A stretch of DNA of 64,000 nt from a virus. Lineage: Duplodnaviria > Caudoviricetes. The first letter of the stretch is position 1. The number at the start of each line of letters is the position of its first letter. The notes under the pieces were generated by a model. That model was not told the DNA's origin and did not search any database. It was given only the letters and a program-made list of their open reading frames with translations. Below, piece after piece: positions 3,292 through 63,931 of the stretch. Both the position numbers and the translations under genes were made by a program. Location of the stretch: IMG/VR virus record IMGVR_UViG_3300042271_000115, positions 4,173-68,172 of that record; one strand, 5' to 3'.

Positions 3292-5130
3292 CTATTTGTA
3301 AATGATTTTGAATCTGCCACCTCGTGTCCTGAATAGCTCTAGCTTATCTTCTGGCACAGGGGCGTATGTATCAGCTAAGAATTCTACTATCTTTATAGAC
3401 TTATTTGATGATGGCTTGATAGATAGAACTTTCCTTGATTGATTTTCTATAGAACCTGATCCTTTTCCTGAGAAGAGTGTTATGTTTCCTTCTCTACTAT
3501 CATCTCTTCTTGTCTGTGATACAAGGAAAAAGATGACACCAGTTTGTTGAGCTATCTGTTGAACACCTACCATAAAATCTTTTATGCCTTGGTGCTCAGT
3601 CTTAGCTTCAGCAACAGCATGGTCTATAGTGTCAATGACTATAATCTCTGGCCTATCTTGAGACTCACATTGTTTCTTAATTGTATTGATTGTTGGTAGG
3701 CCATCAATAGGAACTACTTTGGAAAGTCTTTCTTTCCATTTATCATAAAGAGATGCTTGATATTCAAGTGATCTTGTTATATGATAGTCTGGAACATCTT
3801 CAAGCATTTGTAATGCAGTGAAGTAGAACAAGTCTGAAGGTTGTTCAGACGAGTAATAATAAGTCTTTCTTAGTTGTTCTATTGGCAGAAGAGTATTATT
3901 GTGCATATTAACACCATACAAAAGGTTCTTCATTAGAGTTGTTTTCCCTGCCTTTGTTACACCAAGAAGGGATATAATTTCTCCTCGTATAGCTGCGAAA
4001 TCATCTACACCAAACTGAGCGCCTATTTGTAAACCTTCCTTTCTCATCTTTACAAAGTTTATTTTCTTTGCTTGATTGATAATGAGATCAGGATCTGGAC
4101 TCTCTGCTGTAGCATGATTGCGCTCAGAGTAATGTATGCATCTGGTTGAGCAAAGCTCACCATTTACTCCACGCTTTTGCGCGTTATTGCACGAATAATC
4201 ATATCCTCTTCTATATGCTTGTTCCACAAGTTCTACAATGGCTTTTGTCTCAAGTGGAGTAGTATGGTCATCAATCTTATTATTCCACATTAAGAGAAAT
4301 TCTTTAGTCATCATAGATGGAACTCCTGCGGAAGCGAAATGAGCTGAAAGGATTAAGGTATCAATATGTCTTGAGCCCTCGATAGGGCCTCGTACGAGTC
4401 TATTATAGATACATGAAGCCCGTTTATAGGGCTCTATAACTTTTTCATACGAGGCTATCTTGGGCAATTCTGTAGGGACATAGCTAGCCAGTTCTCCATC
4501 TCCATAATGCTCAGGCCAGTTAAAGTTAAGTCTCTTGCTTTTTGCAAGTTCCTTAATTTCATCCGGCTTAAGGGTAAGAGCTTCATATCTTGTAATAGGT
4601 ATTTTATAGAGGCCGCTCTTTGCATTAATGGAATGAGGACATCTGATAAGTGCTTTTCTATGATAGATACTATGATCTATAGCATCTAGCATATCAAGTT
4701 CTCCCAATAGCTTTTCTTTTGTAAGCCTGACAACAAGCTCTAAGTCTTGATGGCTTTCTGGGAAACCAAAGCAATCTCCATGTATCATAATATGATATCC
4801 TCTGCCAGAGAAATATAACTTATAGTTTTCTTCTCTTAGCCCAAGTTCATCAAAATGATACAAGAACTTTTTAACTATGTTTAATACTCCTTCATCAGAA
4901 GTATCTCCCTTGTCTATGTCTATAGGAAACCATGGGAGATAAGCTTGTATCATCCAGTCCCTTACAGGTGTATCTGAAAGAATATCCTTATCTTGGTCTC
5001 TATATCCATAGATTGACATACCAATTTGCTCGTCACCATTAGCCAATACCCAGTCATATAATTCATCTTCATGAATAAGAATACCTCTTGGCTTGGAAAA
5101 TCCTTTCCCTTTGGCGACTTCGTAAAGCAT
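3292..5130 (-). CDS. Fused AEP primase(-polymerase) and SF4/RecA-like helicase
   Basis: AEP motifs FPIDIDKGD, FSGRGYHI, DHSIY...IRCPHSIN; PriCT-like GSRH; helicase motifs LLGVTKAGKTT, IIVIDTID, LVSQTRR, GSGSIENQSRKVL. Confidence 0.85.
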   Translation of the reverse strand: MLYEVAKGKGFSKPRGILIHEDELYDWVLANGDEQIGMSIYGYRDQDKDILSDTPVRDWMIQAYLPWFPIDIDKGDTSDEGVLNIVKKFLYHFDELGLREENYKLYFSGRGYHIMIHGDCFGFPESHQDLELVVRLTKEKLLGELDMLDAIDHSIYHRKALIRCPHSINAKSGLYKIPITRYEALTLKPDEIKELAKSKRLNFNWPEHYGDGELASYVPTELPKIASYEKVIEPYKRASCIYNRLVRGPIEGSRHIDTLILSAHFASAGVPSMMTKEFLLMWNNKIDDHTTPLETKAIVELVEQAYRRGYDYSCNNAQKRGVNGELCSTRCIHYSERNHATAESPDPDLIINQAKKINFVKMRKEGLQIGAQFGVDDFAAIRGEIISLLGVTKAGKTTLMKNLLYGVNMHNNTLLPIEQLRKTYYYSSEQPSDLFYFTALQMLEDVPDYHITRSLEYQASLYDKWKERLSKVVPIDGLPTINTIKKQCESQDRPEIIVIDTIDHAVAEAKTEHQGIKDFMVGVQQIAQQTGVIFFLVSQTRRDDSREGNITLFSGKGSGSIENQSRKVLSIKPSSNKSIKIVEFLADTYAPVPEDKLELFRTRGGRFKIIYK

Positions 5131-5779: not shown

Positions 5780-6178
5780 TTATGTTAGTTTTGTGAAGTT
5801 CTCAAAGAACTTTATCTCAGATGTTATCTTTTCAAGTTTAAGCTCTTGCTCATGCTTGGCAGAGTATAGCTTCTCAAGCATTGATTCTTTTGAAATTAGC
5901 ATACCCATTGATGCTGTTTTAGCTAATAGATATTTGTCTTTCGTATCTTCTGTAATTGGCACTGTGATGATTTTATCATCCTTGTAAATAGTAACAGCAA
6001 TGGCAGACAAATCTGATCCATTGTCAGCAAAGCCTGTAACTATACCTGGGCAGATAGACCAGTCAGAGTATCCTTTTGCGAATACTACAACTGGTGAACC
6101 AATATTAAGTTCAGACATATCCTTAATATCGTTATCATCAAAAGTTAATACAGAAGAATTTACTTTAATCTGTTGCAT
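5780..6178 (-). CDS. Hypothetical protein with an SH3/KOW-like N-terminal half and coiled-coil tail
   Basis: LNIGSPVVV...GIVTGF pattern; ORF in the operon. Confidence 0.5.
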   Translation of the reverse strand: MQQIKVNSSVLTFDDNDIKDMSELNIGSPVVVFAKGYSDWSICPGIVTGFADNGSDLSAIAVTIYKDDKIITVPITEDTKDKYLLAKTASMGMLISKESMLEKLYSAKHEQELKLEKITSEIKFFENFTKLT

Positions 6179-7064
6179 CTTTTCTCTCCTGATATTTTTG
6201 ACAGGCGTTCATAATAACATTGTATAATGTATTATTGCCTGCCCTGTCCCAGATGAACTTGCGACCGTGTAGTGGTTCAATACGGGTGCCCATAATTACC
6301 TCAGAGTAACCTCTGAAGTCAGCAATATGCTTGCCTGCCTGATCTACTTCGAGGGTTACTATAGCCTCAGCATTGTAGCCTAAGCGTGAAGCAAGTCCTT
6401 CTGGCATAGCAGGTACACGTTTAACTACTACGTCTCTTCCATCAGTAATAGAAATAGACTTTTTCAGGTGAGAGATTAGTATTAGTATGCCATTATCTTT
6501 GATAATGTCAAGTAGTGTATTAACTACACTCATAACTTTTTCTCTACCTCTAGTGTATGCTGCAGCGTATGGAATATCTTCAGGACTAACAGCATGAAGT
6601 ATCTGAAGGTTAGGTTGTTTCTTTGTTTTCTCTTCAGCTATAAGCTCATGCATTGCTGCTTCTACGCACCATAGATTTAGTTTATCTACTGTATCTATGA
6701 TGAGTGTAGTTTTGCCTGAGGTTGTCCACTCATGGTCTATTAGCTCTAGTGCTTCAGCCATAGATAATGAAGGAACAGGGTTACCACTACTGTCTTTAAG
6801 TCCTCTGTCGATTGGTAAGATAATATTATTATCTTTGTAAGGTGGGTTAAGGGAAGTTATTTGGATAGAGATAGCTTTATCTGTACGTACTCCTTGCTCA
6901 AGATCAAGGAATAGCACACCATCTTCTCCATTAGGAGAGAATGTAGAGAAAGCCGTAGTCTTTCCAGTTTTCTCAAATCCTACTGCCATCCAGTAGGTAC
7001 CTGGACTAAGCTTAGACCAGTCTGGTTTAGTGTTAGCCAGGTAGTCTTGTAATTGATACTTCAA
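6165..7064 (-). CDS. AAA_24 / Sak4-like recombination ATPase, canonical order
   Basis: AVGFEKTGKTT (Walker A) at the N-terminus, VLFLDLEQG, LIIDTVD (Walker B), LILISHLK. Confidence 0.75.
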   Translation of the reverse strand: MKYQLQDYLANTKPDWSKLSPGTYWMAVGFEKTGKTTAFSTFSPNGEDGVLFLDLEQGVRTDKAISIQITSLNPPYKDNNIILPIDRGLKDSSGNPVPSLSMAEALELIDHEWTTSGKTTLIIDTVDKLNLWCVEAAMHELIAEEKTKKQPNLQILHAVSPEDIPYAAAYTRGREKVMSVVNTLLDIIKDNGILILISHLKKSISITDGRDVVVKRVPAMPEGLASRLGYNAEAIVTLEVDQAGKHIADFRGYSEVIMGTRIEPLHGRKFIWDRAGNNTLYNVIMNACQKYQERKDATD

Positions 7065-7320: not shown

Positions 7321-8040
7321 TCAGCTATTGGTGCCTTGTTGACAATCAATGTCTGCCATAAGAAGCCTTAACATCTCTGGTGAGGCAAATGATTTAACTA
7401 TGTCTTCTGGATCGATGCGGTTGGCTGGTGAGGCGTTTATGAATTTCATCTCTTCACCAGTGAGTAACACTTTTACAGTAGTAAGCCCATTGTATATGCT
7501 CATGACCCTGCATACTAGGTCATGTTCATATAGTGCGAGAGGAGCTTTGATCCAGTCTCCTGCTTTAAGCTTAGGCTTACTGTAGAATGAGATACCAATT
7601 ATCCCTGATGAGACTTTAAGCCATTTGTCTGTTGACATCACAGTCACTTCTTTGGTTTTCTTACTGACACGGTAAACTTTTCCTTCGCGCATATGAGCGT
7701 ACTCGTAATCGCTGTTAGGCCAAGTTATCTTCTTACCGATAGACATTTGGTATAGCCACCATAGAGAAGATTCTGCTGGGACTTGTTTGCCAATCATTTC
7801 CAGTCTGTGGATACTGTCACCTTTATTGGAGTTACGATACATAGCGATTCTACTATTGATGATTTTATCAACAATGCGCTCTTCGTTAAGCTCCTGCTTG
7901 CTAACTAAATCTGCGTTTAGTAATCCCATGCGAGTTGGCCCTTGATAGTATCTTACCAACAGTGGAGTTTTGGTATTGATACCTATGTAAGTTGGTTCGA
8001 TATAATAGAACACTTCTCCGTTAATTTCCTTAAAGTTCAT
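7321..8040 (-). CDS. Early protein, 239 aa; paralog of 63449-63931; C-terminal KOW/SH3-like domain
   Basis: Near-identical N-terminus to the 63449 ORF; KLKAGDWIK...CRVMSIYNGLTTVKVL tail. Confidence 0.7.
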   Translation of the reverse strand: MNFKEINGEVFYYIEPTYIGINTKTPLLVRYYQGPTRMGLLNADLVSKQELNEERIVDKIINSRIAMYRNSNKGDSIHRLEMIGKQVPAESSLWWLYQMSIGKKITWPNSDYEYAHMREGKVYRVSKKTKEVTVMSTDKWLKVSSGIIGISFYSKPKLKAGDWIKAPLALYEHDLVCRVMSIYNGLTTVKVLLTGEEMKFINASPANRIDPEDIVKSFASPEMLRLLMADIDCQQGTNS

Positions 8041-54616: not shown

Positions 54617-56143
54617 TTATCCCGTCATAAACTCTTTAAGCTTCGGAAACACAAATGTGCCGTCCACAGAGTTTGTTAAGTTCAAGTCGCGAATAATACT
54701 AAGCGGAACAAAATACGCAAGATAAGGAATAAATCCGACCGTGATGTCTATTTGATTGTGACCAAATCTATGCTTAGCTATCAGTATTTTGCTTATGAAA
54801 TACGATGACGCAGCCTCCGTGCCCAGCATAATTTTCTTGATGCCAACCGACCACTCACGATAAACAAAAATAACGTGCGTGGCGTCTTGTTTTAGAGCCG
54901 ACGAGCCAAACAGCCTGTCAAGATTAGGCTTATGAATTACTGCGCCATTCTTATCACTTGCTGGCTTATTTAACTGTGAGAGAGCTATGGTATGTGTCTC
55001 GAGACGCATGGCAAGCTTTTTGAGAAATCTTGACACTGCCCTGTAAACCTCATCTTCACGCCTGTTTCTTCCGCCATCCTTAACGTCCTCAACAAGTTGC
55101 AAATAGTCTATCACAATCAAGTCTATACTGCCGTATGTTGAGTATACCATATTGCTTTTGGAGTTGATGTCACGCAATGTGGATACGTTTGAGTCAACCA
55201 TGAAGTTAGGTGCGACGGTAGATAGTTGACACTTGAAGCTATTGAGCATCGCAATCTTCTCGGCTGGAGTCAATTCAGTCATAAACTTCTGGACTGTTAT
55301 GTTATTCTCAATACAGCAAAGCTTGGTGAGCAATTCATCCTCGGTCATTTCAAGAGAAAAGAATAATATGCGTCTATGCTCCCAAATTTCTTTGCCATTA
55401 TCATCTAATCGTGGTCTTCCTGTATCAAGGTCAATTACCTTCTTTTTTTGTTTGGCTATGTTCCAGGCAATTTGCAGGGATAAGCTTGTTTTTCCGTGAC
55501 CAGTATCACCGGCGATTATTGTTTGATTGCCCGGAGCAAACCAAACATATTTATCAATCATCGGAATATTGGCATGAACTATCGTCTGGTCACCGTCAAC
55601 GCTGGACTTGTTCTTTTCAATCATGGTATCAGTAACATCCAGCAGTGTGCGTGGTTGCTTCCTGTCCTTTTCCGAAAAGAACTCTGAGTATTTACTTATG
55701 ATAGCTTGCAATTGACCAGCAGTTGCCTTGCCACCTTTTGCCGTAGTCACAATATCAACCCCCATGGCATAATACTTCTCAACCTTAAACTTATCCAGTA
55801 TTATGTCCATGTAAGATTGAATGTGTAAAACATTTTCATTGGCACGGTATTGCTTAATGTTTGCTATCTCATCACGGTGTTTGCCTGTTTTTGGGTCAAG
55901 CAAATCCAATGCTATCTGTCCTGTGCTGTCTCGTGTAACTGACATTGAGTTTTCTACGGTAATATCCGTAATGTTGTGGTCGTTCTCCCATAGCCACTTT
56001 ATGCAACGCCACATCATCTTATACCTAAGCTCGGTGAAGTGCCTCTCTTCCAGATACCTATTTGCGGTATCAAAAGCAGATTCACCATGATTAAGTATTA
56101 TTGACAGGATTGCTCGTTGAGCCTGAGTGTAAGAATTATTCAT
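54617..56143 (-). CDS. dnaB: DnaB-like replicative helicase
   Basis: N-terminal AQRAILSIIL...F...YKMMW; IAGDTGHGKTS, FFSLEM, LIVIDYLQL, LSQLNK, KQDA, IAKHRFG; probable start MNNSY. Confidence 0.9.
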   Translation of the reverse strand: MNNSYTQAQRAILSIILNHGESAFDTANRYLEERHFTELRYKMMWRCIKWLWENDHNITDITVENSMSVTRDSTGQIALDLLDPKTGKHRDEIANIKQYRANENVLHIQSYMDIILDKFKVEKYYAMGVDIVTTAKGGKATAGQLQAIISKYSEFFSEKDRKQPRTLLDVTDTMIEKNKSSVDGDQTIVHANIPMIDKYVWFAPGNQTIIAGDTGHGKTSLSLQIAWNIAKQKKKVIDLDTGRPRLDDNGKEIWEHRRILFFSLEMTEDELLTKLCCIENNITVQKFMTELTPAEKIAMLNSFKCQLSTVAPNFMVDSNVSTLRDINSKSNMVYSTYGSIDLIVIDYLQLVEDVKDGGRNRREDEVYRAVSRFLKKLAMRLETHTIALSQLNKPASDKNGAVIHKPNLDRLFGSSALKQDATHVIFVYREWSVGIKKIMLGTEAASSYFISKILIAKHRFGHNQIDITVGFIPYLAYFVPLSIIRDLNLTNSVDGTFVFPKLKEFMTG

Positions 56144-56150
56144 ATTTTCC

Positions 56151-56696
56151 TCATTCGACAACAATGACGCCAAGCATTTCATCTTCGGTTTCTTGGTGAA
56201 CCTCCGTAATTCTTGCTTGGCGTTCTGCTATCATTTTAGACTTTATTTTCTCGTAAAGTGTCATTCCATCTTGGCGAGGTATCGCTACGGTATTGATTGA
56301 TGTATTCAATATTCCTGACCAGAACTTGTCTGTAATTGAGTATGCAAGAACCTCAATGATTGTCTCGACATTTTCACCACTTCTCATTAACCGCCTAATT
56401 TGATTGCGTGCGGCATCAGGTTTTGCTTTTATTGCTATTATCTGGCTCGTATTTACGCCCGTCTTGAGCTTTTCATCGGTAAACCAATCAATAATTAGCC
56501 TTGATATTATCATCTTATCTTTTTCTACACAATAATCTGAAAGGCTTTCCATTAGCTTCGACATTGATTCTCTGAAGTCCGTGCCAGCGTTATTATCATG
56601 TTCGATTACCAGCATGTGGCGTCCCAAAGCGCCGGCAGCAACGGACAGGATTCTGTATGGAACGCCATCAATAATTAGTCGTGTGCCCTTTTTCAT
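56151..56696 (-). CDS. Putative replication initiator / helicase-loader-associated protein
   Basis: Directly upstream of DnaB; IRRLMRSGENVETIIEVLAYSITDKFWSG resembles the C-terminus of phage initiator proteins. Confidence 0.45.
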   Translation of the reverse strand: MKKGTRLIIDGVPYRILSVAAGALGRHMLVIEHDNNAGTDFRESMSKLMESLSDYCVEKDKMIISRLIIDWFTDEKLKTGVNTSQIIAIKAKPDAARNQIRRLMRSGENVETIIEVLAYSITDKFWSGILNTSINTVAIPRQDGMTLYEKIKSKMIAERQARITEVHQETEDEMLGVIVVE

Positions 56697-57814
56697 TATT
56701 TTAACTCGCTTGGCAATGATTTGTAGAAATTACAGAATTTGTTAACTGGGCAATACGATTCGCACCTTGTTGGCTTGGCAGACCTTTTAATTATGCTAAA
56801 CAAACTCAATGCCTTCTGGTGCGAAGCATAAGGGTCTTTACCTTTTTGTATTTCTTTCTCAGCTATTTTTTGTGCTTCAGCATCCATCCAAGATTTTGCC
56901 GCCGCATATGAATACTCGATTTTGCTGGCTCTCTTGTTGCCTTGCTTCATAACAGCATAAGTATCATGCCCTTGCCATCGCTCACTTGGGGTGCATATTG
57001 GGATGTTATCATCAAAAGTATTTGCATATTTCTCAATATCGGCTACCTTATTTTCAACTAACTGTTCCACAACATCTAAGCCAAGCAGTGGTATCTCCAA
57101 AACTTCAACTGGATTTGGATAGTTTCTTTCACGGCTTGCCTCCGTTTTTGAGTAGTCACGGAAAATAAGGTTGATTCTCAGCTTGTTTACCTCATAGCCA
57201 GCAGCCTCCATAAACAACCTGTAAATGTTTAACTGCTCCGTGTATTTCTCAATGTGTGAGCCTTCACGATTGCGATAAATCCATGTCCAGATTGATGTTA
57301 GCTTATAGTCTGTAATACACTTATCTTTAACAGAGTAGTGGTCAATGCCGCCAGTAATCAACTTACCTGATTTTGTTCTGTATTGGAATCGCTTTTCTAT
57401 GATGTCTTTGTCATTCTTAATTGCTTTCGCAAGCTCAATAATACTTGTTCCTTCAACTTTTTTTAATACAATATTTTCCAGCAGGTCGCTAATTTCATCA
57501 TCGGTTGGATTATTTATTGATTCGACTTGCTCGGTAAACTCACGCATTCTGGACATTATTTTCTGTTGCGCAGAGTCAAGATTTGCTCTCTCAAGAACAA
57601 GATGAGCCGCACTTCCAAGTAACATATATAATGATTCGGTAACATCCGTAGTTATTTCATCTTGATGACGCTTTGTTAAGTGGAATAACTTTATTGGTTT
57701 CAATAATTCAGTTACCGAATAATCCCTTTTCTCGCCAAATCCAGAGTACCATTCTCCATATTTTACTGCTTTTACAATCATTTCTGGAATTGATTTTTTG
57801 TTTGTTATATTCAT
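56696..57814 (-). CDS. PD-(D/E)XK exonuclease, Cas4/AddB-like
   Basis: YSVTELL, GSAAH, GGIDH...ITDYK, QLNIY, C-terminal C...CESYCPVNKFC cluster. Confidence 0.75.
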   Translation of the reverse strand: MNITNKKSIPEMIVKAVKYGEWYSGFGEKRDYSVTELLKPIKLFHLTKRHQDEITTDVTESLYMLLGSAAHLVLERANLDSAQQKIMSRMREFTEQVESINNPTDDEISDLLENIVLKKVEGTSIIELAKAIKNDKDIIEKRFQYRTKSGKLITGGIDHYSVKDKCITDYKLTSIWTWIYRNREGSHIEKYTEQLNIYRLFMEAAGYEVNKLRINLIFRDYSKTEASRERNYPNPVEVLEIPLLGLDVVEQLVENKVADIEKYANTFDDNIPICTPSERWQGHDTYAVMKQGNKRASKIEYSYAAAKSWMDAEAQKIAEKEIQKGKDPYASHQKALSLFSIIKRSAKPTRCESYCPVNKFCNFYKSLPSELK

Positions 57815-57822
57815 TTTTACCT

Positions 57823-58419
57823 CTAAAGAAACGTTATTTGTTTACCATTTTTTTTATTTATTCGTTGATGTTCTTTTTTGTGACATTCTTCACATAGTGT
57901 TACTCCATTTGTTATGTCTCCAGATAGAGATGCGTCTCTACTTAATGGGATGATATGGTGTGCATTTAGCTTTCCACCTCGTTTTCCACATTTTTGGCAA
58001 GTATAATTATCCCTTTCCATTACATCTTTTCTGAAGTTTAATGCGTCTATTGAATTTCTAAGTAATCTTGTTTTAGATGTTTTTCCTCCCATCCAACTGC
58101 TTGATAGACTACCAGAATGGTATTTCCCAGAACAAGATTTACTGCAAAAATTTCCACTTCCTCCTTTTTTTCTAAGTTCAGATGGTGCAACACTGAATTC
58201 TTTTTTACAGAATTTACATATTCTTTTTATTTTCCCACCATTCCATAGATAATGATTTTCGCCTCTAATGTTTTTATATCCACCAAGACCTTTCTTTCTT
58301 GCGACATCGTTACACTGCCTTGAACAATATTTTCCTCTACCAATGTTTATATAGCATTTATACTGCATAAAAGACTTTCCGCAAACAATACATTTACATT
58401 CTATCTTAGACACTTTCAA
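57823..58419 (-). CDS. HNH endonuclease with two N-terminal zinc-ribbon repeats (free-standing homing endonuclease)
   Basis: CIVCGKSF...GKYCSRQC, CKFCKKEF...FCSKSC, ERDNYTCQKCG...AHHIIP...NGVTLCEECHKKEH; visibly more AT-rich than its flanks. Confidence 0.9.
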   Translation of the reverse strand: MKVSKIECKCIVCGKSFMQYKCYINIGRGKYCSRQCNDVARKKGLGGYKNIRGENHYLWNGGKIKRICKFCKKEFSVAPSELRKKGGSGNFCSKSCSGKYHSGSLSSSWMGGKTSKTRLLRNSIDALNFRKDVMERDNYTCQKCGKRGGKLNAHHIIPLSRDASLSGDITNGVTLCEECHKKEHQRINKKNGKQITFL

Positions 58420-59924: not shown

Positions 59925-60785
59925 TTAGATTAGGTCTGAGTCTTGAGCTTGTTCTGAATTAGTCTCAACGCTTGCCTCAAATAGGTTATGGTCGAAACTC
60001 ATGCCAACTTTTTTCAGGTTTTTCTTAAGCAGTCTGATACGCAAATCATCCCATGCCTTGCCTGAAAGCTGAACAGCCTTATGGTCTTTGCTCATGATTT
60101 TATCAAGAGCTTCTTGCACAGCCTTAGGTTCCTCTAAGTTATCATCAAGCATTTCCGCAAATGATTTCTCTGTTTCGGGTTGATAGAACAAGACAAAGTC
60201 AAACACGGGCTGTGTTTCTTTCTCGTAATTTGGCATCCAGATTGTGGTGGCTTGGGCTTTGGCATTCTCGTAGCCAACGGGGTCAGATTGTTTGCTCGGA
60301 ATTGGATAGCCGGTATAGCCATTGATGCCATAACTGTCTGGATATTTCTGGTAGAAGTTAAGGACTACTCCAACCTGCTTTCCAATCAAGTCAACATAGC
60401 TCGGCACTTCAACCTCGCGCTCCACGAATTGTCCGTCAACAAATTCACCATCTTTAATTCTTGTGGTTCCGATGGTGTCTCTTGCCCCAGTTATGCCAAA
60501 CAGTGTTCTGAGCTTGCTGGCATAAAAGCCCTCGTCACCGTTTGCGGCGCGGATATGTTTTGCGTCCTGGCGATATACCTTACCGTTTGGCATCTGGAAT
60601 GCGAGAGTAATAAACACAGAGCCATTCTTAGATTGGGATAAGGACGCCTGAGTAACCGTTACCACATATTTACCAGAAACACCACCAGATGGTGCATCTG
60701 CTTTGGCGGCTGAATCGATGTTTTCCTGTGAAGTCATGTCCATGCTCGGAAGGTTGCGGAAGTCGTTGATGTTGTTATTAGTCAT
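59925..60785 (-). CDS. Putative phage ssDNA-binding protein (DUF669-like)
   Basis: SGKYVVTVTQA...SKNGSVFITLAF...; LIGKQVGVVL; acidic tail (QDSDLI); downstream of the AAA_24 gene. Confidence 0.55.
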   Translation of the reverse strand: MTNNNINDFRNLPSMDMTSQENIDSAAKADAPSGGVSGKYVVTVTQASLSQSKNGSVFITLAFQMPNGKVYRQDAKHIRAANGDEGFYASKLRTLFGITGARDTIGTTRIKDGEFVDGQFVEREVEVPSYVDLIGKQVGVVLNFYQKYPDSYGINGYTGYPIPSKQSDPVGYENAKAQATTIWMPNYEKETQPVFDFVLFYQPETEKSFAEMLDDNLEEPKAVQEALDKIMSKDHKAVQLSGKAWDDLRIRLLKKNLKKVGMSFDHNLFEASVETNSEQAQDSDLI

Positions 60786-60806: not shown

Positions 60807-61118
60807 TTATCTTAGTATGGTTTTTTGGGTTTTGGTCGTTGTATTGACGCCATCAACACGATAAGAAATCATGTATGGCACATCAAACTTTGACTCGGCG
60901 GAACGAATCCACTCTCGACATTCTTTCTCTGAGGACATCATATCTGCCTCAATCTCGTTTGTGGTGGTGTTTGTTACATAATACACTCGTGTGTGCCAGT
61001 TCTTGGTCTTGACTTTCTCAAGGTCTGGCATGACTACATTTTGGTTTTGGGTCTTGGGATTGACTTGCCCAAGGTCTGGTTGGTCTTGTGCCATTGGATT
61101 GACTTTTTCTTCGTACAT
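60807..61118 (-). CDS. Hypothetical protein
   Basis: GAGG RBS; ORF in the operon. Confidence 0.5.
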   Translation of the reverse strand: MYEEKVNPMAQDQPDLGQVNPKTQNQNVVMPDLEKVKTKNWHTRVYYVTNTTTNEIEADMMSSEKECREWIRSAESKFDVPYMISYRVDGVNTTTKTQKTILR

Positions 61119-61120
61119 TT

Positions 61121-61819
61121 CTACTCCTCGAATAGATATTTAATACTTGTTGATTTTCCGCTCCCGCTCTTGCCACAGACCAGAATTGGTGAGGGCATAA
61201 AGTCGGGGTTATTTGCCATGTCATAGTAATCATAGATAGCGCCAAGCACCAGAGACATGTCATTCTGTATATACCTCTCTGCAAACATACCATCAGGCGA
61301 TTTGGCTGTATTTCTGCCATCGGTATTGGTGCAGAATTGATAAGCCTCTGCGCCCTGCTTGAGCGGGTTGAAGTGAGTATGCAGAACAGTGGTAAAGAAA
61401 GACTCTATCTTCCCTTCCAGCTTCTTGCCGTCAACCTTAACTACTATGCGGTCAATAGAATCACTGTCACGGACAATCTCATCAAGAGCCGTGAATATAA
61501 TGAATCTGCCTTTGGACTGCCAAGTCATGAGCAACTGCTCAAGAATATCAGAATACTCACGCCAATAATCATATCCTGTGACCTTGTTTTGTTTCAGGAA
61601 CTCAGATAACAGGTATAGTATTCTGGTGAATGAATCAACTACTACAACTTTGATTGGATTGTAATAGTCTGCTTTGTCTTGCTCATTGGCTTTGAAATTA
61701 ATCAAACCTGAGCCCGCTTTCATTACTGCCTCAAATTGCTTCCATGAGGCTATTGTCTTGACCTTACACCTTGCCGCCTGTCGAAACGGCAAAGTTTTGC
61801 GCTCAGTATCAATAAACAA
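61121..61819 (-). CDS. AAA_24/Sak4-like P-loop ATPase, circularly permuted
   Basis: Starts at FIDTERKTLPF; has VVVDSF (Walker B) and TAKSPDGMF...ND; Walker A ILVCGKSGSGKSTSIKYL is at the extreme C-terminus. Confidence 0.8.
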   Translation of the reverse strand: MFIDTERKTLPFRQAARCKVKTIASWKQFEAVMKAGSGLINFKANEQDKADYYNPIKVVVVDSFTRILYLLSEFLKQNKVTGYDYWREYSDILEQLLMTWQSKGRFIIFTALDEIVRDSDSIDRIVVKVDGKKLEGKIESFFTTVLHTHFNPLKQGAEAYQFCTNTDGRNTAKSPDGMFAERYIQNDMSLVLGAIYDYYDMANNPDFMPSPILVCGKSGSGKSTSIKYLFEE

Positions 61820-61839
61820 TATCTCATCAAGGGGCGCAG

Positions 61840-62601
61840 TTATCCTTTTACTTTCGGGATGGTATTTCGTAAAGCCTCCTTTTTGTTTTTAATTATAGCC
61901 TGCTTGAGAGCATACATTATATCGCCAAAGCCGGTTGATACTCCCTTCTCATAATACAGGAAGGACTCATCGCCATGCTGTATTGTTATAGTTTCGATAT
62001 CGTTAAAGCCTCGTGCCACAATCGTTAATGTGTCGCCAATTTTAGCATTGACCGCATCAAATAAATCGTTCTCCATTGCCACAGTGATTTCATTAACCGA
62101 AATCCATTCAAAGGTTAAATTTTGATAGAATTCCAGTGTGGCAAATTTTAGACCGCTGTGATTGATGGCGTTTCTGTAATCCTCTGCGCACAAATGCCTG
62201 AAAAATCTGAAGGCACTATGCTCCCAGTTTTGTAACATCAAATCCTTTTTTGTGTCTATCCCAATTGATTTTAAGATTGACATGAAAGGTTTGCTGTCTT
62301 TTTCTGAGAGTAATAGCTTGACCATTTCAAGCATGACGCAGGACTCTTTGTTTGCGAATAGGTTTGTGGTGGTTTGCTCAATTAACCAATCCCATTCATC
62401 ATCGGTTAACCCACTCGGTCGCCTGATACATGATTCAGGCATATTGTGTTTTAGGCTCATGTTCTGCACATTATTCACTCCTTTACCCTTGATAGACCTG
62501 TGCCGTTTTGTCTTGTCAGGGATTTTATTTTTGTTTTTTTTGGCAAATATTCTCATTTTCAGTATCCTTTTTTTATAGTTTCTATTGTCATGTTGCCGCA
62601 T
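61840..62601 (-). CDS. Hypothetical protein (likely start near 62469)
   Basis: AAGGAG RBS before an in-frame GTG at 62469. Confidence 0.55.
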   Translation of the reverse strand: MRQHDNRNYKKRILKMRIFAKKNKNKIPDKTKRHRSIKGKGVNNVQNMSLKHNMPESCIRRPSGLTDDEWDWLIEQTTTNLFANKESCVMLEMVKLLLSEKDSKPFMSILKSIGIDTKKDLMLQNWEHSAFRFFRHLCAEDYRNAINHSGLKFATLEFYQNLTFEWISVNEITVAMENDLFDAVNAKIGDTLTIVARGFNDIETITIQHGDESFLYYEKGVSTGFGDIMYALKQAIIKNKKEALRNTIPKVKG

Positions 62602-63448: not shown

Positions 63449-63931
63449 TTAACTCATTGACATAGGCTCATTATAGAATGAGATACCAATTATCATTGAT
63501 GCGACTCTAAGCCATTTGTTTATTGACATTACAGTCTCTTCATTGGTATTCTTTTTGACAAAGTAGATTATTCCGTTTGACATAAAGGCGTATCTGTATG
63601 TAATATTAGGCCAAGTTATCTTCTTACCGATAGACATTTGGTATAGCCACCATAGAGAAGATTCTGCCGGGACATGCTTGCCAACCATTTCCAGTCTGTG
63701 GATATTGTCACCTTTATTGGAGTCACGATACATGGCAACTCTACCATCGATGATATTATCAACAATGCGCTCCTCGTTAATCTCCTGCTCGCTAACTAAA
63801 TCTGCGTTTAGTAATCCCATGCGGGACATCCCTTGATAGTATCTTACCAGCAGTGGAGTTTTGGTATTGATATCTATGTAAGTTGGTTCGATATAATAGA
63901 ACACTTCTCCGTTAATTTCCTTAAAGTTCAT
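63449..63931 (-). CDS. Shorter paralog of 7321-8040 (lacks the C-terminal KOW domain)
   Basis: Direct alignment of the translations. Confidence 0.75.
   Translation of the reverse strand: MNFKEINGEVFYYIEPTYIDINTKTPLLVRYYQGMSRMGLLNADLVSEQEINEERIVDNIIDGRVAMYRDSNKGDNIHRLEMVGKHVPAESSLWWLYQMSIGKKITWPNITYRYAFMSNGIIYFVKKNTNEETVMSINKWLRVASMIIGISFYNEPMSMS

Follow-up and report, generated by a model that had tools for sequence, protein, structure and literature searches.

A phage Sak4-like ATPase with its P-loop at the C-terminus: a probable natural circular permutant of the RecA-type core

Can the core of a RecA-type recombinase keep its fold and its ATP site when the strand that carries the P-loop is moved from the beginning of the chain to its end? 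Few enzyme folds have been studied as well as that of the RecA-family ATPases, in which this strand is buried in the middle of the sheet and stands at the start of the chain. The question is raised by one gene on the minus strand of a 64,000-nucleotide (nt) stretch of DNA from a virus of the class Caudoviricetes (IMG/VR record IMGVR_UViG_3300042271_000115, positions 4,173 to 68,172), which is referred to here as the window and whose positions are numbered from its first letter. A preliminary description of the window, made from its letters alone, had taken the product of this gene to be a natural circular permutant of a Sak4-like recombinase, and split hidden Markov model (HMM) matches, homologues, AlphaFold2 (AF2) modelling and synteny support that claim. 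We consider it probable, at roughly four chances in five, that the gene encodes a circularly permuted, core-only RecA-fold ATPase of the phage Sak4/AAA_24 family, which would hold its P-loop site in cis and act in the manner of Sak4.

Motif order and family homology

The minus-strand reading frame is open from 61888 down to the stop codon TAG at 61121–61123 and is bounded upstream by a TAA stop at 61889–61891. No in-frame ATG lies upstream of the TTG at 61819 before this TAA, and this TTG is the first canonical start codon of the frame. Residue numbers refer throughout to the 255-amino-acid (aa) stop-to-stop translation (P0001). The gene and its motifs are given below.

61121–61819, minus strand: open reading frame (ORF) of the putative permuted Sak4-like/AAA_24 ATPase, 232 aa from the TTG at 61819, with the stop TAG at 61121–61123
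61820–61888, minus strand: in-frame upstream extension (..TKYHPESKRITAPLDEI), translation uncertain
61802–61822, minus strand: strand 2, ILFIDTE, residues 23–29, ending in the invariant Glu29
61628–61648, minus strand: Walker B strand VVVVDSF, residues 81–87, with Asp85 and Ser86 invariant
61223–61264, minus strand: last helix of the canonical family, NDMSLVLGAIYDYY, up to residue 222
61187–61222, minus strand: linker DMANNPDFMPSP, residues 223–234, leading from the old C-terminus to the old N-terminus
61124–61186, minus strand: relocated strand 1, P-loop and helix 1, ILVCGKSGSGKSTSIKYLFEE, residues 235–255
61148–61174, minus strand: Walker A core GKSGSGKST, residues 239–247 of 255

In the canonical family an N-terminal Walker A motif is followed by strand 2 and then by Walker B, strand 2 being the element directly after Walker A and helix 1. 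The window protein does not follow this order. Its strand 2, which resembles FIDAE in RecA and YIDTE in Rad51, comes ahead of Walker B, and the chain then runs to TAKSPDGMF...NDMSLVLGAIYDYY, the usual C-terminal end of the family. Canonical relatives stop at the position of this last helix, with ..YYNE or a similar ending. The preliminary description had reported the same series, namely a protein that begins at the strand normally found after Walker A, a Walker B motif followed by the usual family ending, and a linker leading to a GKS motif at 61148–61174. Each element was found where it had been placed, in that order, and the coordinates of the GKS motif enclose exactly the GKSGSGKST core; the frame check likewise agrees that there is no in-frame ATG before the upstream stop.

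The Pfam family AAA_24 (PF13479) matches the window protein with 39.4 bits against a cut-off of 27, residues 21–190 being aligned to positions 23–187 of the 195 in the profile. The profile phrog_2872, annotated as 'Sak4-like ssDNA annealing protein' (ssDNA, single-stranded DNA), matches over positions 25–216 of 219 with an expectation value (E) of 9e-32, and phrog_124 matches with E 5e-22. The profile start positions, 23 and 25, mean that the AAA_24 and phrog_2872 matches begin past the N-terminal P-loop of the models themselves. The last 20 residues weakly match the N-terminal P-loop positions of AAA_22, AAA_18 and AAA_33, and the C-terminal segment also weakly matches the N-terminus of guanylate kinase. 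NCBIfam yielded no model for the window protein, and when the family profile was run against the sequences of solved structures, only generic P-loops were hit.

The formal comparison is with the canonical members of the same family. A canonical HMM was built from 69 canonical relatives, and 40 permuted proteins (the window protein and 39 homologues) were scored against it. In the window protein, positions 25–221 of this HMM align with residues 21–223 at 141.4 bits, and positions 2–22 align with residues 232–252 at 23.6 bits, which is the match between the C-terminal segment and the N-terminus of the canonical model that the preliminary description had anticipated. The two pieces stand in swapped order in all 40 of the proteins scored, with 15–24 bits for the P-loop piece, and because of this recurrence the split match is not a chance result. 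When the C-terminal segment is left out, the mean canonical-HMM score drops from 145 to 126 bits. Alignment of the permuted with the canonical profile by hhalign gives a probability of 100% and E 1e-51, with columns 19–225 set against columns 28–222.

The ends of the proteins define where the chain would have been opened. Canonical N-termini read MANLVIICGKSGSGKSTSGSNL or MKPNIIVVGKSGSGKSSSLRNLNPETTAVLNTERKQLPF, and canonical proteins end in ..NDLxxVxxxxxKYYNE; the window protein, which begins ..EILFIDTERKTLPF and ends ILVCGKSGSGKSTSIKYL, has the canonical N- and C-ends joined. The canonical genes at loci L014 and L019 begin with MKPNIIVVGKSGSGKSSSLRNLNPETTAVLNTERKQLPF, which places the cut in the helix 1/strand 2 loop. 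The canonical N-terminal segment is homologous to the C-terminus of the window protein and the rest is collinear, which is the pattern of a circular permutant. By homology the window protein is to be classed as a Sak4-like family member whose chain has apparently been rearranged.

The N-terminus of the permuted proteins varies in length. In most members the start codon is an ATG about 17 codons upstream of the window's TTG, and the segment that it opens, M-x-F-N-x-x-T-K-x-L-x-F, is modelled as a β-hairpin (AF2 strands at residues 8–10 and 15–18). The upstream extension of the window, TKYHPESKRITAPLDEI, matches this hairpin and overlaps the 3′ end of the upstream ORF. At the position of the family ATG the window has ACG (61868–61870), as do its close homologues on contigs L002, L082 and L083, and a perfect AAGGAGG (61875–61881) lies 4 nt upstream of it, the counterpart region in L002 being 5008–5024. 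The TTG is also invariant in the window, L002, L082 and L083. The hairpin is regarded as variable because other members start between these two points (MPLDE.., MKFNPKEVF..). The ACG site could reflect either non-canonical initiation or a shortened N-terminus.

The permuted clade and its origin

At least 60 related metagenomic proteins share the permuted order. A search of 5.8 billion proteins returned 47 clusters (P0002–P0048) at 37–95% identity, most of them spanning the full query. An N-terminal Walker A motif is absent from an alignment of 29 sequences (0 of 29), all of which end in G-K/R-S-x-x-G-K-S-T/S-S. The residues G239, S241, G244, K245, S246, S248, E29 and D85 are invariant in this alignment and include the full catalytic set, that is, the Walker A Lys and Ser (K245, S246), the Walker B Asp (D85) and the strand-2 Glu (E29). 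The other permuted homologues that the preliminary description had thought worth seeking are thus many, and they carry an invariant C-terminal P-loop. In a motif scan, Walker A was found only C-terminally in P0002–P0048, apart from three truncated or frameshifted proteins, and only near the N-terminus in P0049–P0121, apart from P0056, which has a long leader before the motif, and P0109, which has no motif. A profile search of 1.84 billion representatives gave 1488 relatives, and among the best 150 of these a further 16 representatives of 50%-identity clusters have the C-terminal layout. The P-loops of these 16 have diverged, and include GRSGSGKS, GASGLGKS, GQSGYGKT, GTTGTGKT and GSTATGKS; in several of them the S-L-R-N-L that comes next in canonical N-termini has been kept.

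The permuted gene is present at 94% identity on the IMG/VR contig L002, at 95% on two contigs, L082 and L083, of one NCBI metagenome-assembled genome (MAG), at 71% on a contig of another MAG, L084, and at 53% on the European Nucleotide Archive (ENA) contig L139. Codon comparisons point to purifying selection on both parts of the protein. The linker and C-terminal segment differ from those of L084 by 14.5 synonymous and 7.5 non-synonymous changes, corresponding to a ratio of non-synonymous to synonymous rates (dN/dS) of 0.05, and the dN/dS of the core is 0.04–0.12. Contigs L082 and L083 (JAVEPM01) and L084 (CAZUZI01) are binned in MAGs labelled as Methanolobus sp. and Candidatus Saccharibacteria. 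These organisms were set aside as hosts, as the sequences are most likely mis-binned phage contigs and are unreliable for host assignment. For the terminase of the window phage, identity to the enzymes of isolated phages reaches only about 25%.

For a tree of 188 core sequences, the P-loop segment was left out. A single branch sets the 50 permuted rows apart from all others, with a support of 86 in the Shimodaira–Hasegawa-like approximate likelihood ratio test (SH-aLRT), which corresponds to a single change of state. In a free quick search on a thinned set of 95 rows, the permuted group fell into two parts; this split was rejected as a search failure, as a tree constrained to keep the group whole gained 58.5 log-likelihood units over it and had a p value of 0.97 in the approximately unbiased test (p-AU). 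A single origin of the permuted clade, nested among canonical relatives, is the best, if unproven, reading of these trees.

The permutation may have arisen by duplication and trimming or by fission and fusion. Four proteins without Walker A at either end (P0155, P0254, P0258 and P0109) were considered as fission intermediates. They fall in clusters of one or two members, the sole cluster mate of P0254 being 24 aa longer, and they were taken as probable gene-call or assembly truncations and, less probably, as split genes.

A different cut is seen in P0246, a protein of 263 aa from a single Logan contig, which starts at the Walker B strand and, after ..YYDG, runs into MLMIGESGSGKSASLRNLDPATTAIINIERKQLPF.. 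(Walker A and strand 2) plus an insert. This protein represents a second permutation type, in which about 65 residues are moved and the cut lies before the Walker B strand, and its nearest neighbours in the tree are canonical proteins and not the permuted clade of the window. A search of viral contigs for loci related to P0246 and P0155 gave no match. The Sak4-like family therefore shows at least two cut points, and that of the window, after helix 1, differs from the P0246 type.

The predicted ATP site and competing explanations

The AF2 model of the window protein, calculated on the family alignment, is confident, with a predicted local distance difference test score (pLDDT) of 91.4 and a predicted template modelling score (pTM) of 0.89. 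It has a RecA/Rad51-like fold without extra domains. The hairpin is followed by strand 2 at residues 23–27, the Walker B strand at 81–85, the remaining core elements and the last helix at 211–221. The chain then passes through the linker, which is conserved within the closer subfamily and has a pLDDT of 91–95, to a strand at 235–239, a loop and a helix at 247–252, modelled with a pLDDT of 85–95. The model of the canonical L014 ORF (pLDDT 96.6) begins with a strand at 5–9, a helix at 16–21 and a strand at 27–31 and ends with a helix at 199–210, so that the two models present the same series of elements, rotated. The best match among solved structures is Sak4 of phage 52A (8rc5), with a Z score of 12.1 and a root-mean-square deviation of 3.5 Å over 172 residues, in an alignment that stops at model residue 222; Rad51 paralogs and RecA come next, with Z scores of 8–9.

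The preliminary description had looked to such a model for insertion of the P-loop strand into the core sheet. The confident C-terminal strand–loop–helix and the rotated order are in keeping with it, and we infer, because the model is compact and confident and the hydrophobic pattern of the strand is conserved, that the C-terminal strand probably takes the central position in the sheet, next to Walker B, and completes the ATP site in cis.

On this basis the following course of events may be proposed. The first segment of a canonical protein, of about 22–25 residues and comprising strand 1, the Walker A P-loop and helix 1, would have been cut at the loop between helix 1 and strand 2 and re-attached to the old C-terminus through a linker of 12 residues. 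The resulting chain starts at strand 2 with its conserved Glu, runs through Walker B and the remainder of the core, and ends with the P-loop. Its C-terminal strand would fold back to the usual place in the central sheet, where the ATP site may be built in cis from Glu29, Asp85 and Lys245/Ser246. The permutation is inherited and defines a clade, in keeping with one origin. The protein would act as canonical Sak4 does, in ATP-dependent binding and annealing of ssDNA helped by an SSB-like protein (SSB, single-stranded DNA-binding protein), in the setting of a recombination and replication module with an exonuclease and a DnaB-like helicase. By analogy with canonical Sak4, the window protein is a candidate ATP-dependent annealase working with its SSB-like partner.

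Several observations weigh against a functional permutant of this kind. The start codon is ambiguous, as the family ATG is ACG here and a start at the TTG would clip strand 2. None of 263 proteins (0/263) carries Walker A at both ends, as an intermediate would, and a search for a duplication intermediate among longer proteins yielded only two weak matches, of 485–494 aa, an outcome that argues only weakly for absence. Residues 223–255 are not covered by sequential structure aligners, and the permuted model scores lower on 8rc5 than the canonical L014 model, whose Z score is 19.1; part of this drop could reflect real structural differences.

Other explanations accept more or less of the permutation. 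The one that survives best, although we regard it as unlikely, holds that the fold and the ATP site are intact but that the role has changed to that of a Rad51-paralog-like mediator or loader, a helicase-loading factor or a repair factor. The top Foldseek matches of the model are indeed Rad51 paralogs such as RAD51D, the canonical AAA_24 protein of the same phage could be the annealase, and the new termini together with the added N-terminal hairpin alter the surface near the ATP site. The synteny with an SSB-like gene and an exonuclease is, however, that of canonical Sak4 modules, and the core residues are conserved with the canonical relatives.

Somewhat lower still we place a domain swap, in which the permutation is real but the C-terminal strand, P-loop and helix are inserted into the neighbouring subunit and form ATP sites in trans, driving the assembly of filaments or rings. 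In RecA and Rad51 polymers, each subunit contributes a strand or motif to the one beside it. The position of the relocated segment at the chain end on a 12-residue linker would suit such an exchange, and Sak4 of phage 52A forms filaments with ATP-γ-S (PMC11846896). The AF2 monomer, however, is compact and confident, its linker included, which fits packing in cis, and the linker is conserved and not floppy.

It is very improbable that the C-terminal P-loop was acquired separately, or that the remnant of a neighbouring P-loop gene was fused to an N-terminally truncated Sak4. Short P-loop segments are alike across many families, and the weak matches of the segment to the N-termini of guanylate kinase and AAA_22 could be read in this way. 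Such a foreign segment would not be expected to match positions 2–22 of the family's own canonical HMM at 15–24 bits in 40 of 40 permuted proteins. The segment also shows the signature of the subfamily, GKSGSGKSTS and then [LI]-x-x-L, and starts exactly at the canonical end, in a protein that starts exactly past the canonical helix 1. An assembly artefact, about which the preliminary description had been concerned, or a decaying pseudogene with a non-functional tail has a negligible probability: the contig is a linear metagenomic fragment and the gene lacks an ATG start, but the permuted order, with its invariant P-loop, recurs in dozens of independent assemblies from IMG/VR, NCBI MAGs and ENA at 37–95% identity, and because of this recurrence and the low dN/dS both are ruled out.

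Gene neighbourhood and relation to known systems

Down the minus strand from 63931, the window contains four ORFs without a family match, the permuted ATPase, a 103-aa ORF and the SSB-like gene. Several small ORFs, an HNH endonuclease, an exonuclease, an ORF without a family match and a DnaB-like helicase follow further down. The neighbours that bear on the ATPase, and the second ATPase of the window, are as follows.

60807–61118, minus strand: 103-aa ORF without a family match, starting 2 nt past the ATPase stop
59925–60785, minus strand: SSB-like partner of 286 aa, phrog_743, with an acidic C-terminal tail ending ..DSDLI
56696–57814, minus strand: exonuclease, phrog_2139
56151–56696, minus strand: ORF without a family match
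54617–56182, minus strand: DnaB-like helicase
6165–7064, minus strand: second AAA_24 ATPase, in canonical order with Walker A near the N-terminus, matching positions 8–186 of the profile

The ATPase sits ahead of an SSB-like gene, as the preliminary description had stated, and this pairing with a downstream SSB-like gene is kept in L002, L084 and L139, that is, down to 53% identity. The same pairing is present in the canonical relatives L014 and L019. The 103-aa ORF between the two genes has conserved counterparts of 90 aa in L002 and 85 aa in L084 and is absent from L139. The HNH endonuclease gene (57823–58419, minus strand) lies between the SSB-like block and the exonuclease, and in L002 a different, Cys-rich HNH-like ORF (3687–4418) is inserted upstream of the ATPase. 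It seems that mobile endonucleases change their place within the ATPase/SSB-like module.

The second AAA_24 gene had been put forward in the preliminary description as a canonical counterpart within the window, and its profile match bears this out. It belongs to a block termed module A, in which a Mu Gam-like end-protection protein (1688–2239), a RuvC-like Holliday junction resolvase (2249–2725) and a primase/helicase fusion (3292–5130) are also encoded, all on the minus strand. Two paralogous minus-strand genes, at 7321–8040 and 63449–63931, lie 55.9 kb apart and share a repeat (7572–7871 and 63463–63762) with 84% nucleotide identity over 300 nt. Both paralogues stand at the head of a block on the minus strand, and each of the two blocks has an AAA_24 ATPase, an SSB-like gene and a helicase of its own. 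The window seems to represent either a phage with two recombination and replication modules or a contig joining two related phages. The canonical ATPase of module A was not found in the records that hold L002 and L083, which are incomplete.

If a whole phage clade retains fold, catalytic residues and gene neighbourhood with the P-loop strand placed last, the RecA core would tolerate a radical change of chain order. In such proteins nature provides a system in which folding order, and the coupling of ATP binding to DNA annealing, can be examined. There is also a practical side, as genes of this type will be called truncated or devoid of an ATP site by annotation pipelines in which Walker A is expected at the N-terminus. 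Taken with the second cut point, the clade suggests that phage recombination modules innovate repeatedly by permutation. No paper on such a protein emerged when the literature was searched for permuted forms of Sak4, RecA, ATPases or P-loops; the searches brought up permuted GTPases only. Whether the minimal RecA core of Sak4 has been permuted more than once, in the 22–25-residue and the ~65-residue types, and whether this is the first natural and conserved permutant of a RecA-family recombinase, is in our estimate an evenly balanced matter. If true, the entire P-loop element of the window protein would work from the extreme C-terminus, and the new chain ends beside the ATP site could change the coupling between ATP binding, filament formation and contact with the SSB.

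The closest characterized systems are Sak4 of phages HK620 and 52A. HK620 Sak4 is an ssDNA-binding protein with ATP-dependent annealing activity, and it is stimulated by the neighbouring SSB through the last six residues of that SSB (PMC5928155). The window protein resembles these enzymes in its fold, its membership in AAA_24 and in PHROGs 2872 and 124, its Walker A and Walker B motifs and its strand-2 Glu. It is also of similar size, about 230 aa without extra domains, and its module likewise contains an exonuclease, a helicase and, next to the ATPase, an SSB-like gene whose product has an acidic tail. Unlike them, it carries strand 1, the P-loop and helix 1 at the extreme C-terminus behind a 12-residue linker, and most permuted members add an N-terminal β-hairpin before strand 2; its identity to HK620 Sak4 is only about 28%.

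The canonical relatives of the GKSGSGKS type in AAA_24 include P0049–P0121 and the ORFs in L014 and L019; the nearest of them, P0049–P0055, have 33–38% identity to the window protein. The TAKSPxGMF...NDL...YY ending and strand 2, NTERKxLPF, are common to these relatives and the window protein, and they too have an SSB-like gene downstream, with DnaB upstream. These proteins begin M..IIVVGKSGSGKS and end ..YYN/S, whereas the window protein joins these ends and opens at the loop between helix 1 and strand 2.

Circular permutation has been described for P-loop GTPases, with the motif order G4-G5-G1-G2-G3 in YRG/YlqF/YjeQ and G3-G4-G5-G1-G2 in cpRAS (PMC2430557). Those proteins belong to the TRAFAC class and not to the ASCE/RecA-like ATPases, have other cut points and show no sequence relationship to the window protein. 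What the two have in common is a natural and conserved permutation of a P-loop NTPase that places the P-loop late in the chain.

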